Origin: Methanobacteriota archaeon
GTDB lineage: Archaea > Thermoplasmatota > E2 > DHVEG-1
Direction of reading: 5' to 3'
Length of the DNA stretch: 50,006 nt
NCBI GenBank assembly: GCA_017885605.1
Contig: JAFNFT010000028.1
Coordinates: forward strand, 2,095 to 52,100
In this document: one piece after another, positions 21,118 through 43,352 of the stretch
Layout: each line of letters starts with the position of its first letter
Numbering within the stretch: position 1 is the stretch's first letter
The notes under the pieces: generated by a model
Told to the model about the DNA's origin: nothing
Database searches by the model: none
What the model saw: only the letters and a program-made list of their open reading frames with translations
Made by a program: the position numbers and the translations under genes

Positions 21118-23481
21118 ATGAAGAATAGAATACCTAGATTGAAAAAAGGTTATACTCTATGCGTTTTTTTCACGTTGATTCTGTCCATGGAATTGGGAGG
21201 TCTTCTCGCAGCACAAGAAATAACGAACCATACGTTTCCTTCTATTGTTGCCACTGTTCCTCTGTCAGAACAGCATACACTTATGGACATTATTCAGAAG
21301 AGGATTACCATTCTTGAGGTGAACCGATCAAGAACTTCTGTCGTCATCCTTGTCTCAGCGGACGAATTCGCTTGGTTGTCTTCGATGAATTTTTCCCCAG
21401 CGGTTATCCCTGATTCCGTTGCAGAAGCGCATGGGTGGAAGTACTCCCCTGAGTTTGAACGTGATTTTCACTCCTACTCCCAGATGACGACCGAACTTCA
21501 AACCATCGCAACTACCTACCCTGAGATTGCTCATTTATATGATCTTGGGCAGAGTGTACAAGGCCGGATTCTCTGGGGATTAAAAATCACTGATAACCCT
21601 GATATCGAGGAAAACGAACCTGAGGTCCGCATCTGCGGTCTTCATCATGGGAACGAGTACATGTCCGCTGAGTTACCCTTGAATCTTGCATTGCTCCTTG
21701 TTCAAAACTATAGCAGTGATCCTACAATCACCGAGCTGGTCGATACTCGGGAGATCTGGATAATCCCGATGGTGAACCCCGATGGCAGGGAGGCAGGTTC
21801 TCGGTATAATGCTCATGGTGTTGATTTGAACAGGAACTATGGGTACATGCCCGAAAGTGCAACACCATATTCTGAGCCAGAGACATGTGCGATGCGAAAC
21901 AACGCGGTACAGAACAACTTTGTCCTTTCATTATCGTTTCATTGCTCTGGAGATATCGTCAACTACGTCTGGAATTATAAAAATCAACGAGTCCCTGATA
22001 ACAACGCTATTGAATATCTGTCGGAACAATACGGTTCGCATAATGGGTATTGGGTCGTAGAAGGCTATGATTGGTACCAGACTCTTGGTGATTGTAATGA
22101 TTTCAGTTACGGAACTCGTGGTGATATCGACTGGACCGTTGAAGTACAAAACTCAGATATCCCGCAGGCATGGGACCTGAACCGGGATGCGATCCTGGAG
22201 ATTATCGATGCAGCAGACATGGGACTTACCGGGGTGGTAACAAATGCAGATAACGGGCAACCGATCCCTGCGACCGTCTGGGTTGAAGAGGCGTTCTGGC
22301 CTTGTTTCGCAGACCCTGAGATCGGGGATTACCATAAAGTGCTGTTACCAGGAACCTATACGGTTCATTATCAAGCCAATGGTTTCCAGGAAAAGATATT
22401 GTCTGTTGATGTGGACGCAGGCGAACCGACTGTATTAAATGTCGCGCTTCACCCTTCTCCTCACTACTATGCGTACCAGGTTACGACCTGCGCGTACTAT
22501 GCGCCGTCTGATAATTATCAGAATAACCCAACAGAGGGGATCGCATCACTAGGAATCCCTGACGATGTTTGTGCATCACTTGGCGTTGGCGGATACATTA
22601 TCTTGGATATGCTGAATCAGATCACCGATGTCCCCGATGCCAATGACCTGAAGGTGTACGAAGGAGATGCGACGAACGATGGTTACCTGGTGTACGTGTC
22701 CAGTGATTGGCAAGGACCTTGGATATCACTCGGGACCGGAATGGGGACCACGGAGTTCGATCTAGCAAATGGATCTGTTGAATCAGCACGCTATGTAAAA
22801 ATCGTTGATGATGGAAACGGAAATCCCTCCGAACTTAATCCCGCTGCTGATATTGATGCGGTGGAAAACCTTGCGACAGCAAACCAAAATCAAGCCCCGG
22901 ATAACCCAGCCCGACCAGATGGTCCAACAACCGGGGGAACGAACATCGATTATTCATACACAACCACCACAACCGATCCCGAATCCCAACAGGTGTACTA
23001 CCTGTGGTCCTGGGGCGATAGCATGGGGACTTGGCTTGGTCCGTTTGATTCTGGAGTTCCTGCTCAGGCGACTCATCAGTGGAACGTCTCTGGTGATTAC
23101 ACTGTGAAAGTGAAAGCAAAGGATGTCAAAGGAGTCGAAAGCGGATGGTCTGATTCCGTCACCGTGCGTATTGTGGGGGCTCCTCGTATCGAGATCGGTG
23201 AGATTTCCAGTGGTTTTGGGAGTGTCACCGTGCAGATAAAAAACACTGGTGCGGGGGACGCAGTCAATGTCACCTGGTCTATTTCTCTCCAGGGCGGTCT
23301 GGTACTTCTTGGGCGGCAGACGACCGGAACGATTTTGAAAATCCTCCCTGGGTTTAATCCTCTGGTCAAAACAGGCTTTCTCTTCGGTCTTGGGAAGACG
23401 ACCATAACGGTAACAGCGGATACAGCTAGTAAAACAGTATCAGCGTTCCTCCTTGGACCTTTTGTCATAATCCAAGACTAG
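21118..23481 (+). CDS. Secreted zinc carboxypeptidase (peptidase family M14) with PKD-like module and conserved ~100-aa C-terminal domain
   Basis: A signal-peptide-like N-terminus is followed by the M14 motifs GLHHGNEYMS (HxxE), PMVNPDG, HGVDLNRNYG, SFHCSG (third Zn ligand) and DWTVEV (catalytic Glu). The PKD-like module is YYLWSWGDSMGTWLGPFDSG...YTVKVKAKDVKGVESGWS. The C-terminal domain spans 23176..23478. Confidence 0.85.
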   Translation: MKNRIPRLKKGYTLCVFFTLILSMELGGLLAAQEITNHTFPSIVATVPLSEQHTLMDIIQKRITILEVNRSRTSVVILVSADEFAWLSSMNFSPAVIPDSVAEAHGWKYSPEFERDFHSYSQMTTELQTIATTYPEIAHLYDLGQSVQGRILWGLKITDNPDIEENEPEVRICGLHHGNEYMSAELPLNLALLLVQNYSSDPTITELVDTREIWIIPMVNPDGREAGSRYNAHGVDLNRNYGYMPESATPYSEPETCAMRNNAVQNNFVLSLSFHCSGDIVNYVWNYKNQRVPDNNAIEYLSEQYGSHNGYWVVEGYDWYQTLGDCNDFSYGTRGDIDWTVEVQNSDIPQAWDLNRDAILEIIDAADMGLTGVVTNADNGQPIPATVWVEEAFWPCFADPEIGDYHKVLLPGTYTVHYQANGFQEKILSVDVDAGEPTVLNVALHPSPHYYAYQVTTCAYYAPSDNYQNNPTEGIASLGIPDDVCASLGVGGYIILDMLNQITDVPDANDLKVYEGDATNDGYLVYVSSDWQGPWISLGTGMGTTEFDLANGSVESARYVKIVDDGNGNPSELNPAADIDAVENLATANQNQAPDNPARPDGPTTGGTNIDYSYTTTTTDPESQQVYYLWSWGDSMGTWLGPFDSGVPAQATHQWNVSGDYTVKVKAKDVKGVESGWSDSVTVRIVGAPRIEIGEISSGFGSVTVQIKNTGAGDAVNVTWSISLQGGLVLLGRQTTGTILKILPGFNPLVKTGFLFGLGKTTITVTADTASKTVSAFLLGPFVIIQD

Positions 23482-23738
23482 GTGTTTTCCTTAATACTTT
23501 CTTTTTTACTAGTACTACAGAAGATAGATCCTTTTTTTAAAATATACTGCTTCAAGTGTTACATTGTTGCTAAGCAGTGAAGATACGGAGGGTGCTGACC
23601 CATAGGAATCAGAAGGTTTTAGGGACGAGAAGAGTGTTTCATTGTGGTTTTTTTGATTTTCATAGGGTCGATATCTATATAAATACAAATTTTGTTAGAG
23701 TTAATTATTAGTAAATTTTATACTAGGGGATATGAAGA

Positions 23739-41576: not shown

Positions 41577-41831
41577 ATTACCCCTACTTCATTTAAGTGC
41601 GTAACTCTTTATAAATATATCGTTATTCATAAAAGCGATAATCTAGTGGATTAGCACTCTATATTGTAGGGAGGTAAAACCTATAAATTATATTCGGAGA
41701 GTATATATTTCAATCTTCAATACTTTAGATTCACTAATTCTTTTGATTAATAATCTTAATATAGTAAAACATAAATATAAAGTTATAAGGAATTAATTCT
41801 TACAAAATATTGGATTCAGGAGAATAACAAT

Positions 41832-43352
41832 ATGAAAAAAGTATACCTATTGATTGTTGTAGGTATATTTTTAATCAGTAATACAAATGTTGATGGTTTT
41901 TTTACTAAAAACATCATGAATAATGTTCATAATAGTAATCCAATCGGAACAAGAAGTGACGAAGGAAATATTGACGATTTTGATCCGTTAGTGGATGTTT
42001 CGGTCACTGTCGAAATAAAAATGATTCGTTTTTTAGCGATCAATGAACTACAAACGTTTCCCAAAAACGAGGGAAACAGCAGCCCGAATTTTTATGTAAA
42101 AGTCTACATCAACAACGTAGAATTCACAAGTCCTGTATGGAATGATACGAAATATATCACTGATTCTGATTGGAATGCAACCCTGAATGTTCCCGATGAT
42201 GTAGAAAACGTTACTATCACCATTCAACTTTGGAGTCATGAAACTGAGGATATCCTCTACGATATTAGTGGTGATCTTGAAAGTTACGACGTGACTCTTC
42301 TCTACAGTATCAAAACAGGGTATTGGACCGGTGATGATTCACGTGGTGATGTGAGTGGATACGGCAGACTGTGCGGGTGCGATGATGGGACTATCTATGA
42401 GAATGACCGCGACTGCGAACTCTGGTTCGACATCACGCAGAACGATTATGATGGTGATCATATCCCGTATTGGATTGAAGTCAATACGCTCGGTACCGAT
42501 CCAACCGTCGATGATTCCGCTCTTGATCCTGATAACGATAGTATCCCAACATACTGGGAATATAAATGGGGCTATCAGCTTCTGACCTGGAATGACTTTG
42601 AAAACATTGACCCGGATAATGATAGTATTAATAATATCGAGGAATTCCTCACCTCGCAATGGTTCTCAGATCCGTTTAGAAAAGATGTATTTGTCGAAAT
42701 GGACATCATGACGGAAGGACCTCTTAGACAAAACAGCTCTATCTCGTCGCATTCGAAGGAATTACTAAGAACAGCCTTTAATCGACGAAATATTGTATTT
42801 CATCTTGATGATGGTTGCATGGGTGGTGGTGGAGAAATCATTCCATTTGATCGAAAAACAAATATCAATGAATTTCGTACCATCTATTCAACATATTTTC
42901 TCAATAACGATATAGAGAATTGGCGGAGAGGTGTGTTTCGCTATGCGATGATTATCTATCATTATGCTACAAGTGGTTTTGCATGCGTAGGAGAATATCC
43001 ACGGTTCTACTGGCATGTTCGAGGTATCAACACTTTTGTCATCTCAACCAAAACCATGCATGAGACATCTCTAAAATTATTCAAACAAATAGATCATGTG
43101 TTTGCGGGTGTAATTATGCACGAACTTGGTCATACATTTGGTATAGATTTTATGTTCCCAGTTGGATGCGACAACACACGAACCTATCGGCCTCTCAATC
43201 TTGGATTTTGGCTTTTTGCACACTACAAAAGCTGTATGAATTATCGATACGTGTATACGATTCTTGATTATTCAGATGGGTCTCATGGATTGTTTGATTA
43301 TGACGATTGGTCAAATCTTGATTTTACATTTTTTGAAAAAAAGACACTATAA
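41832..43352 (+). CDS. Secreted metzincin-like zinc metalloprotease with C2-like N-domain and TSP3-like acidic repeats
   Basis: It has a signal peptide, then VIMHELGHTFGIDF (HExxHxxG) and a Met-turn-like KSCMNYRY ~45 aa downstream. DPDNDSIPTYWE and DPDNDSINNIEE are Ca-binding-type repeats. The N-terminal VSVTVEIKMIRFL...SPNFYVKVYINNVEFTSPVW...ITIQLW resembles a C2 beta-sandwich. Confidence 0.65.
   Translation: MKKVYLLIVVGIFLISNTNVDGFFTKNIMNNVHNSNPIGTRSDEGNIDDFDPLVDVSVTVEIKMIRFLAINELQTFPKNEGNSSPNFYVKVYINNVEFTSPVWNDTKYITDSDWNATLNVPDDVENVTITIQLWSHETEDILYDISGDLESYDVTLLYSIKTGYWTGDDSRGDVSGYGRLCGCDDGTIYENDRDCELWFDITQNDYDGDHIPYWIEVNTLGTDPTVDDSALDPDNDSIPTYWEYKWGYQLLTWNDFENIDPDNDSINNIEEFLTSQWFSDPFRKDVFVEMDIMTEGPLRQNSSISSHSKELLRTAFNRRNIVFHLDDGCMGGGGEIIPFDRKTNINEFRTIYSTYFLNNDIENWRRGVFRYAMIIYHYATSGFACVGEYPRFYWHVRGINTFVISTKTMHETSLKLFKQIDHVFAGVIMHELGHTFGIDFMFPVGCDNTRTYRPLNLGFWLFAHYKSCMNYRYVYTILDYSDGSHGLFDYDDWSNLDFTFFEKKTL

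Follow-up and report, generated by a model that had tools for sequence, protein, structure and literature searches.

The 50,006-nucleotide stretch analyzed here (the window; contig JAFNFT010000028.1 of assembly GCA_017885605.1) is chromosomal DNA of an archaeon of the Thermoprofundales (also known as Marine Benthic Group D or MBG-D; Thermoplasmatota) close to the genomes SM1-50 and M11B2D, and it carries eight large genes for secreted-type proteins (g1 to g8; 21118–43352), seven on the plus strand and one, g7, on the minus strand. The first six are predicted to encode an M14 carboxypeptidase, a gingipain-type C25 peptidase, a giant protein with choice-of-anchor J modules, a divergent C25-like peptidase, a thioredoxin-fold protein, and a second divergent C25-like peptidase. 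We think it probable that g1 to g6 constitute a cell-associated island for extracellular protein degradation, made up of separately transcribed, Sec-exported proteins. Several of the proteins end in one of two interchangeable C-terminal cassettes, which would keep the enzymes at the cell surface instead of letting them diffuse away.

An earlier reading of the letters alone (the sequence-only reading) had pointed to eight large genes with signal-like N termini, and both the open reading frames (ORFs) and their coordinates were confirmed. Each of the eight proteins contains a single strongly hydrophobic segment, which is N-terminal and follows basic residues, and none has a C-terminal transmembrane segment; the signal-like N termini were called by a hydropathy heuristic. 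Because 8 of 10 consecutive genes are signal-like while none of the flanking genes checked is (those for a response regulator, a 410-aa protein termed hyp410, a helix-turn-helix (HTH) protein, and a Zn-ribbon protein), chance does not account for the clustering.

Thermoprofundales rank with the most abundant archaea of marine and estuarine sediments, where their C25 peptidases dominate the exported peptidase genes (PMC6752024). The enzyme content as such is not new, because secreted C25 and M14 peptidases of MBG-D have been listed before and their transcription has been demonstrated (PMC6461988, PMC6752024). MBG-D metagenome-assembled genomes (MAGs) hold 6–15 C25 genes each, some of which are among the most transcribed genes (PMC6461988), and in White Oak River sediments C25 makes up 41–45% of the signal-peptide-bearing peptidase genes, with zinc carboxypeptidases also abundant (PMC6752024). 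Extracellular peptidases of MBG-D were also the subject of Lloyd 2013 (cited by PMC9585477 and PMC6752024). The sequence-only reading was thus right that extracellular C25 peptidases of sediment archaea had been reported, and the same holds for M14. These catalogues concern the same lineage and enzyme families, with the difference that families are counted per genome (PMC6461988, PMC6752024). The conserved gene order, the giant protein, the thioredoxin-like partner, and the two cassettes did not turn up in the searchable literature, and a search of the Zhou 2019 supplements (PMC6461988) for direct evidence of expression did not recover the orthologous scaffolds. What is new is the conserved six-gene core and, above all, two widespread and strictly C-terminal cassettes.

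The conserved island provides a concrete protein set of endopeptidases, carboxypeptidase, binding protein, and redox partner, and much of the secretome of the lineage could be predicted from the cassette sequences. Should the cassettes act in retention or sorting, they would point to an undescribed archaeal mechanism of surface attachment, and retention of this kind would bear on how very slow-growing sediment cells avoid losing their enzymes by diffusion.

Three C25-family peptidases

The canonical gingipain-type C25 endopeptidase of the island is g2 (23739–26105, plus strand; assigned by Pfam and PDB matches). Its signal is followed by a pro-domain (23952–24461), a catalytic domain (24504–25484), a PKD domain (25542–25793), and the first of the shared C-terminal cassettes, module (a) (25788–26102). 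Peptidase_C25 matches at 1e-70 (239.2 bits; cut-off 23) and Propeptide_C25 at 3e-12, the structures matched in the PDB are those of Kgp (1e-42) and RgpB (6e-35; residues 252–593), and the pro-domain matches the Kgp pro-domain (PDB 5mun) at 2.8e-19. The catalytic dyad is in place, with YTGH455GS corresponding to YTAHGS of Kgp and HAC488LT to NCCIT, and His455 and Cys488 are invariant in eight orthologues. In the alignment, Asp526 pairs with the WGED Asp of Kgp, which we take to be the S1 residue Asp516; because this acidic S1 residue is retained, cleavage after Lys or Arg is plausible for g2. Judged by its sequence, g2 is a bona fide member of the C25 (gingipain) family, as the sequence-only reading had proposed.

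The other two members are divergent. g4 (31693–34386, plus strand) comprises a pro-domain (31885–32313), a catalytic domain (32527–33708), two PKD domains (33808–34311), and a degenerate C-terminal tail; g6 (36528–39257, plus strand) carries two PKD domains and the second cassette, tail (b). The start of g6, like that of g5 described below, was corrected: the most likely starts are 36528 (M39) for g6 and 34670 (M36) for g5, with a GGGG/GGAGG ribosome-binding site (RBS) 8–12 nt upstream. Peptidase_C25 matches g4 and g6 at 2e-24 and 1e-21 (87 and 78 bits, cut-off 23), and both proteins pass the Propeptide_C25 threshold. They are 64% identical to each other, and their alignment with the g2 family by hhalign has 100% probability (E 2e-48); in it, the GCHCGDF Cys coincides exactly with that of g2, and the invariant AHAN His is two columns away from the g2 His. 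No direct PDB match was found for the catalytic domain of either protein. On the profile evidence, g4 and g6 are members of the C25 family that carry the dyad, in agreement with the two divergent C25-like paralogues of the sequence-only reading.

In a more distant relative (L003; L numbers denote the loci compared), a chagasin-type cysteine-peptidase inhibitor (Inhibitor_I42; 12568–12996) is encoded between two C25 genes and may accompany the secreted C25 enzymes as a means of self-protection. C25-like homologues with 49–54% identity also occur in MAG contigs of Phycisphaerales (Planctomycetota; L052, L056, L063, L067, L078, and L084), where they end in a third, unrelated conserved C-terminal domain (...IEIEILP). 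We rejected misbinning as the source of these homologues: L084 is a truly bacterial contig, with a bacterial topoisomerase I and NapC/NirT, and in it (see, for example, 9860–13153 and 13247–15079) the C25-like gene is followed by one for an FG-GAP protein. The presence of these homologues in Phycisphaerales suggests inter-domain gene transfer.

The carboxypeptidase, the giant protein, and the thioredoxin-fold protein

g1 (21118–23481, plus strand) encodes a secreted M14 carboxypeptidase with a catalytic domain (21487–22170), a transthyretin-like CarboxypepD_reg domain (22225–22449), a PKD domain (22888–23169), and module (a) (23170–23478). Peptidase_M14 matches at 3e-45 (155 bits, cut-off 21.6) and CarboxypepD_reg with 35.6 bits (cut-off 32.3); PKD matches as well. 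The active-site set that the sequence-only reading had listed (HxxE, NPDG, DLNRN, His, and catalytic Glu) is indeed intact, with HHGNE176 (H177/E180), NPDG220, DLNRN236, H275, and E342. The best PDB match, duck carboxypeptidase D (CPD) domain II at 1.8e-39, spans the catalytic and transthyretin-like domains, and the zinc ligands and catalytic Glu of g1 align to it. From this alignment, we classify g1 as a CPD-like member of the M14 peptidase family. As a side observation, the PKD domains of g1 and g2 (residues 588–685) and of g4 (779–873) match PDB 4XED, at up to 1.5e-25. That entry, whose chain has 99 residues and bears the name 'Peptidase M14, carboxypeptidase A', presumably represents the PKD domain of an M14 peptidase encoded by SCGC AB-540-F20, a single-cell genome of MBG-D; the PKD domain type would therefore already have been solved.

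g3 (26419–31491, plus strand) encodes a secreted, non-catalytic protein of 1690 aa, annotated through NCBIfam and Pfam. It contains a beta-propeller-like region (26671–27333), a MAM-like domain of the InhA-like kind (27694–28128), choice-of-anchor J or cleaved-adhesin-type modules (28378–28818, 29041–29475, and further ones), an OmpL47-type domain (30949–31161), and a Big_7 domain (31237–31362). The sequence-only reading had noted adhesin-like modules with the motif NDDWL(A/V)TPG; the motif occurs twice (residues 691 and 911), each time within a choice-of-anchor J module, and the two modules match one another at 1e-50 when internal repeats are compared as segments by phmmer. Because the choice-of-anchor J model NF038128 matches above its cut-off (2e-42, 145 bits, cut-off 30, in four stretches) and Pfam Cleaved_Adhesin below its own (16.8 bits, cut-off 21.4), g3 is by profile a choice-of-anchor J member with a distant relation to Cleaved_Adhesin. 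Its orthologues, of 1619–1711 aa, occupy the equivalent position in L004–L006 and L018. g3 carries neither of the shared C-terminal cassettes.

g5 (34670–36076, plus strand) encodes the secreted thioredoxin-fold WCPYC protein, a claim of the sequence-only reading that was upheld by an AlphaFold2 model with its PDB matches and by conservation of the CxxC motif. The WCPYC thioredoxin (Trx) domain lies within a beta-sandwich (34799–35497) and is followed by a PKD domain (35519–35749) and module (a) (35759–36073). Pfam Thioredoxin scores 17.6, below its cut-off of 23.5. The model of residues 54–286 has a pLDDT of 96.8, its top 50 PDB matches are all thioredoxins, and the central ∼88–90 aa superpose on thioredoxins with a root-mean-square deviation of 2.4–2.9 Å and a TM score of 0.6–0.68 on the target. 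CxxC is present in 95 of 95 homologues, and C126, C129, and P173 are invariant in an alignment of 38 sequences, where P173 is a candidate for the cis-Pro. Going by the model, g5 has a thioredoxin fold.

We propose a division of labor that starts from the families, folds, catalytic residues, and synteny observed for the island and from the terminal position and breadth of its cassettes. With its propeller, MAM, and choice-of-anchor J domains, g3 would bind particulate or polymeric substrate; the g2 zymogen and the divergent g4 and g6 would cut proteins internally, and the CPD-like M14 enzyme g1 would trim the new C termini. The CxxC protein g5 could keep the catalytic cysteines reduced or open disulfides of the substrate, and the terminal cassettes would retain the enzymes at the cell surface. 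The resulting peptides and amino acids could be fermented, with an aminotransferase and a 2-oxoacid:ferredoxin oxidoreductase encoded 9–14 kb upstream, and the adjacent PAS, kinase, and receiver genes may regulate the island.

Conservation of the island in relatives

In relatives whose g2 homologues are 61–75% identical, the genes follow one order: aminotransferase, PAS protein, kinase, 410-aa protein, receiver, M14, C25, giant, and C25-like; the stretch from M14 to C25-like is syntenic in L001, L004–L006, and L018. A genome scan anchored on the C25-like genes recovered the downstream half of the region, in the order C25-like, Zn-ribbon, HTH, FG-GAP, alanyl-tRNA synthetase (AlaRS), phosphoribosyltransferase, and lysyl-tRNA synthetase (LysRS), from L008, L009, L011–L013, L018, L019, and L026; L018 holds nearly the whole island on one contig. 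The Trx-like gene lies between the two C25-like genes in relatives, on the strand opposite to that in the window, as seen in L018. In more distant genomes, at loci with different flanks (L038 and L040), a similar set of four families is arranged otherwise: giant-like, C25-like, a more divergent C25-family gene (28% identity to g2), M14. Among 42 non-orthologous loci of at least 12 kb, 16 hold at least two C25-family genes, three an M14 gene, and three a Trx-like gene, and at four unrelated loci (L023, L044, L051, and L058) a C25-like gene has a Trx-like gene as its neighbor. Genes for arylsulfotransferase-like (ASST) propellers were seen in or beside the island in L005 (12690–14264) and L006 (3073–4674 and 5426–7264).

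The sequence-only reading had named synteny in relatives as a check of its interpretation. Synteny holds for g1 to g6, whose order is kept (L001, L004–L006, L018), and fails for g8, which is missing from all six relatives that reach the position concerned. We take g1 to g6 (21118–39257) to be a functionally linked conserved core, to which g7 is possibly linked and to which g8 and the HTH/Zn-ribbon pair are not.

Several observations weigh against a working protein-degradation island. We rejected an operon structure: the intergenic regions of g1 to g8 are spacers of 200–450 bp, each with a TATA-like box, an RBS, and oligo-T runs, which points to separate transcription units, and the genes look monocistronic. 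Much of the synteny is ordinary collinearity, because the HTH/Zn-ribbon/FG-GAP genes and the housekeeping flanks are conserved too, the latter in close relatives. Relatives differ in how many copies of the Trx-like gene they have and in its orientation, and with 6–15 C25 copies per genome, some chance co-location is to be expected. g1 has an Asn at the position aligned with Asp192 of duck CPD domain II, presumably the determinant of basic specificity in CPD-type enzymes; because Asn replaces that Asp, a role in trimming Arg or Lys is not established for g1. Secretion, activity, co-expression, and attachment are predictions, and we infer the substrate, the specificity, the role of the Trx-like protein, surface retention, and regulation. 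In one stable-isotope-probing study, MBG-D did not take up 13C-protein (PMC9123169).

Many of these points would also suit a loose secretome hot-spot in which the genes are not coupled, having come together by local duplication (g4 and g6), domain shuffling (the C termini of g1, g2, and g5), and inherited order, and in which the likeness to the gingipain parts list is a coincidence in a lineage rich in C25, M14, and PKD proteins. The individual promoter-like and terminator-like elements, the strand flip of the Trx-like gene, the many C25 copies per genome, the ASST-like genes inserted in L005 and L006, the lack of conservation of g8, the status of the HTH/FG-GAP block as a neighbor, and the low frequency of M14 and Trx-like genes in the non-orthologous loci (three of 42 each) all fit such a hot-spot. 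It accounts less well for the recurrence of the four-family set in another order and between different flanks in L038 and L040, for Trx-like genes beside C25-like genes in four unrelated loci, and for a pairing of C25-like and FG-GAP genes that is found even in Phycisphaerales bacteria. We consider the hot-spot unlikely, if the best of the alternatives, and retain the protein-degradation island as our interpretation.

Two shared C-terminal cassettes

Five of the eight proteins end in a shared C-terminal module that follows a PKD domain: module (a) in g1, g2, and g5, tail (b) in g6, and in g4 only the degenerate tail. The last 197 residues of g1 and g2, comprising the PKD domain and ∼100 aa, are 52% identical, and the same unit of g5 is 31–34% identical. 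The sequence-only reading had spoken of shared targeting modules; common modules are indeed present on five of the eight proteins, and a targeting role is what their behavior suggests. No model in Pfam or NCBIfam matches either module above threshold. For module (a), Pfam CARDB stays sub-threshold at 16–21 bits (cut-off 22.7), NCBIfam matches the module of g5 to a DUF11-type repeat below threshold (E 0.029) and those of g1 and g2 to nothing, and the PDB sequence profile search gave one weak match, 2L0D, a 'cell surface protein'. An AlphaFold2 model of module (a) is a nine-strand beta-sandwich of ∼100 aa (pLDDT 95.5), whose best structural neighbors in the PDB are generic Ig-like domains (E ≥1e-3, TM score ≤0.6). 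The module closes with the motif GPF(V/I/F) followed by hydrophobic residues, and no linker or conserved cleavage motif was found between the PKD domain and the module.

We built a hidden Markov model (HMM) from the last ∼105 residues of module (a); on g1 it matches at 6e-45 and ends 1 aa before the C terminus. In 1.2 Mb of fetched loci, the HMM identified 53 ORFs, and in all 53 the match ends 0–37 residues from the C terminus; the carriers are M14, C25, C25-like, and Trx-like proteins and several unrelated ones. Searched against 1.84 billion representative proteins, the profile matched 2330 at E ≤1e-3 and 910 at E ≤1e-10. Among the best 150 of the 2330 proteins, ∼144 (∼95%) have a single terminal copy, and 142 of 154 domain matches end within 10 aa of the C terminus; two of the three top-scoring proteins are giants with 10–12 partial internal tandem matches. 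The cargo is diverse, with PKD domains, BNR and PQQ propellers, M28 peptidases, NosD/beta-helix, LamG, FG-GAP, and arylsulfotransferase-like proteins, and 80 of 85 full-length carriers have a signal-like N terminus.

Tail (b) of g6 (39174–39254, plus strand) has the form ...MP-x(10)-FLQHLLEKFPNMFPVLRHLLGY, and the consensus of ∼25 aa, FLxxLLExFPxxFPxLRxLLGY, always follows a PKD domain. Both halves have a helical hydrophobic moment at or above the 95th percentile of the local background, that is, they are amphipathic. Tail (b) closes 25 ORFs in the fetched genome loci, among them C25-like and Trx-like proteins and others (including those in L008, L012, L018–L020, L023, and L026), and a pattern scan of sediment metagenomes gave at least 518 confirmed matches. 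In 80 metagenome loci (L087–L166), all 102 occurrences lie 4–14 residues before the stop, 91 of them at exactly 5. Among the proteins that carry it are C25 and C25-like peptidases, Trx-like proteins, legumain-like C13 proteins, S8 subtilases, and M14, FG-GAP, and arylsulfotransferase-like proteins. At other loci, ASST-like proteins carry both cassettes, (a) and (b).

The two cassettes replace one another within single families. Among the 120 matches listed for g2, 94 homologues carry (a) and 8 carry (b); for the 120 listed in the g5 search, 95 of which have a Trx domain, the corresponding numbers are 56 and 7. Even the Trx-like gene of the orthologous island has (a) in the window, L010, and L026 and (b) in L008, L012, L018, and L020. 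Terminal position, single copy, diversity of cargo, and swapping together amount to the behavior of sorting or anchoring modules and not of substrate-binding modules.

Comparison with gingipains and other surface systems

According to the sequence-only reading, the genes match the parts list of the gingipain system. Gingipains are exported through Sec as zymogens whose pro-domain is N-terminal; they end in a C-terminal domain (CTD) for the type IX secretion system (T9SS), which is Ig-like with seven strands, ∼70–80 aa long, and marked by PxGxYVV and KxxxK motifs, and which the C25-family sortase PorU removes while anionic lipopolysaccharide (A-LPS) is attached (PMC5445135). RgpA and Kgp give rise to protease–adhesin complexes, CPG70 trims C-terminal Arg and Lys, and gingipains serve colonization as well as nutrition (PMC5445135).

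The likeness extends to a C25 peptidase with pro-domain, dyad, and aligned acidic S1 residue, to an M14 enzyme, and to cleaved-adhesin-type modules, all families with intact active sites where they are enzymes, and the domain order of g2 (signal, pro-domain, catalytic, Ig-like, terminal beta-sandwich) resembles that of RgpB. Here the adhesin modules belong to a separate gene, g3, and are not fused to the protease, and the window gives no context of an outer membrane, T9SS, or A-LPS. The Porphyromonas gingivalis counterparts are scattered in the genome, and here they are neighbors. The parts list therefore stands at the level of families, and not for the terminal domain, which is not a T9SS CTD, or for a PorU, which has no match of that grade in g2, g4, or g6. 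As an analogy, the gingipain system is a reasonable functional lead and does not imply membership.

We rejected homology of module (a) to T9SS CTDs: no such match appeared in Pfam or NCBIfam at E ≤10, in the PDB profile search, or in the Foldseek top 50, and module (a) lacks both PxGxYVV and KxxxK. A PorU-like identity for g4 and g6 was likewise not supported, with zero matches to the NCBIfam PorU model, which reaches 66.6 bits on g2 against a cut-off of 420. An anchor of the PGF-CTERM type was rejected as well, as all eight proteins lack a hydrophobic segment at the C terminus and the tails have no NCBIfam match. With C-terminal sorting or anchoring domains such as the T9SS CTD and PGF-CTERM/archaeosortase signals, and with the logic behind the NCBIfam 'choice-of-anchor' domain names, the cassettes share strict C-terminal placement in single copy, unrelated cargo with N-terminal signals, and the existence of alternatives within one family, but they have neither the transmembrane helix nor the basic tail of the PGF-CTERM type. 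The sub-threshold CARDB score and the weak 2L0D match recall the CARDB/DUF11-type Ig-like domains of archaeal surfaces, from which module (a) differs in being single and terminal in ∼95% of the proteins listed; it is a nine-strand sandwich without a close structural relative. Tail (b) comes closer to the amphipathic anchor that ties Escherichia coli PBP5 to the membrane by its C terminus.

These comparisons raise the question of how far the cassettes might go beyond passive retention. It is conceivable, though we think it very doubtful, that (a) and (b) are the sorting or anchoring signals of an as yet undescribed archaeal surface-display pathway that defines the Thermoprofundales exoproteome, a functional analogue of the T9SS CTD and PorU in which a C25-like paralogue serves as processing or transfer enzyme. 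We give still less credence to a T9SS-like route of surface sorting and maturation, in which a PorU-like sortase of the C25 family removes or transfers the cassettes and so attaches the cargo to an envelope component, with the M14 enzyme trimming as CPG70 does. The RgpB layout of g2, the strictly terminal, single-copy, interchangeable cassettes on very diverse cargo, the membership of PorU in C25 and the weak match of its model to g2, and the trimming of gingipain products by CPG70 (PMC5445135) speak for this route. It is opposed by the lack of similarity between module (a) and T9SS CTDs in sequence or fold, the PorU score far below cut-off on g2 and absent from g4 and g6, the missing linker or cleavage motif, and the gingipain-type pro-domains, which are typical of digestive zymogens; nor was an acceptor molecule or partner gene identified.

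Highly improbable, too, is a locus for cell–cell interaction or antagonism, whose giant, propeller, and proteases would target other cells or the surfaces of hosts or partners (in attachment, predation, or symbiosis) and not on detrital protein, since adhesin-type domains (choice-of-anchor J, MAM, FG-GAP, PKD), the role of gingipains in colonization (PMC5445135), and the need for protease control hinted at by the chagasin-type inhibitor in L003 are set against a window with no toxin, immunity, or secretion-machine genes, amino-acid fermentation genes adjoining the island, and an environmental literature that ties these enzymes to peptide use.

Genes at the downstream edge

Downstream of g6 lie a Cys-rich Zn-ribbon ORF of 57 aa (39359–39532, minus strand), an HTH_3 protein gene between g6 and g7 (39539–40240, minus strand), and g7 (40341–41576, minus strand), which encodes a secreted FG-GAP beta-propeller. 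FG-GAP_3 matches g7 at 6e-23 (81.8 bits, cut-off 26.9), and seven DxDxDGxxE motifs of the Ca type occur ∼50 aa apart, at residues 70, 125, 173, 231, 281, 331, and 376. g7 is accordingly a predicted seven-blade propeller, the number of blades being read from the motifs, as in the sequence-only reading; FG-GAP genes were found 3′ of C25-like genes in five archaeal loci and one Phycisphaerales contig.

The sequence-only reading had described the Zn-ribbon and HTH genes as a two-gene regulator unit. Both genes are present, and the HTH behaves as a conserved neighbor. Identities in relatives are 85–94% for HTH, 68–93% for Zn-ribbon, 76–87% for FG-GAP, and 58–87% for the peptidases, and we judged it unlikely that the HTH/Zn-ribbon pair regulates the island, the HTH being far more conserved than the island genes and always beside AlaRS. 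The HTH/Zn-ribbon/FG-GAP block looks like part of the conserved neighboring genome, and the pair is probably not island-specific; it reappears ∼8 kb from another C25-like gene in L079.

g8 (41832–43352, plus strand) encodes a secreted HExxH protein of a large uncharacterized Thermoplasmatota family, with more than 1500 unannotated members of ∼475–505 aa. We rejected it as a member of the island: it is absent from all six orthologous loci that reach AlaRS (L009, L012, L013, L018, L019, and L026), where FG-GAP abuts AlaRS, and a homologue lies elsewhere in an unrelated gene context. It is a lineage-specific insertion. HExGH is invariant in 25 homologues and is followed by a conserved Gly, CMNY is invariant too, and many invariant Asp residues lie in DxDxD-type repeats of the family; CMNY could be a Met-turn. 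Of the metzincin-like protease proposed in the sequence-only reading, the HExxH motif holds, and the metzincin character is uncertain, as position +10, where the canonical third ligand would stand, is a non-conserved Phe and the Pfam zincin matches are all sub-threshold (E ≥0.067). With zero PDB matches and no library family at threshold, g8 may represent an undescribed family of secreted zincins.

Upstream genes and host

On the upstream side, a PAS-domain protein (16312–17475, minus strand, Pfam) and a HAMP-HisKA-HATPase histidine kinase (17472–18893, minus strand, Pfam) are followed by hyp410 (19063–20295, minus strand), which lies between the kinase and a stand-alone response-regulator receiver domain (20499–20894, plus strand; Response_reg 1.9e-22) situated just upstream of the M14 gene on the same strand. 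All four are just upstream of M14 in every relative that reaches that far. The PAS and kinase genes are kept directly upstream of the island in L001, L004, L005, and L006, the receiver is at the equivalent position in L004–L006, and the position-conserved hyp410, which has no Pfam, NCBIfam, or PDB match, is 58–98% identical in relatives. A link of these genes to the island outside the orthologous context was not found. The PAS protein and the kinase are a possible sensor pair beside the island.

The archaeal origin of the window, also asserted in the sequence-only reading, is evident from the Hjc resolvase and class I LysRS that it encodes, along with AlaRS and 2-oxoacid:ferredoxin oxidoreductase subunits; it has no tRNAs. 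Thermoplasmatota MAGs are the source of all close homologues; two of these MAGs, Thermoplasmatales archaeon SM1-50 and Thermoplasmata archaeon M11B2D, are MBG-D/Thermoprofundales genomes analyzed in PMC6461988. C25 genes on predicted plasmids have been mentioned (PMC9585477), and we rejected a plasmid or mobile origin for this locus: the AlaRS, LysRS, Hjc, CoA-biosynthesis, and POR genes are in conserved order.

Farther upstream of the island lie the 2-oxoacid:ferredoxin oxidoreductase subunits (7219–10177) and a class I/II aminotransferase (10994–12283), classic steps of archaeal amino-acid fermentation, which L001 and L005 have at the corresponding place with respect to the island. In the window, the aminotransferase is separated from the PAS gene by a gene for a membrane protein with DUF362 and Big_7 domains and by a 311-aa ORF (12522–15428). 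In L001 and L005, the aminotransferase adjoins the PAS gene, and in L004 an rve integrase and a 440-aa ORF without a Pfam match lie just upstream of PAS; 12522–15428 is a variable insertion spot.

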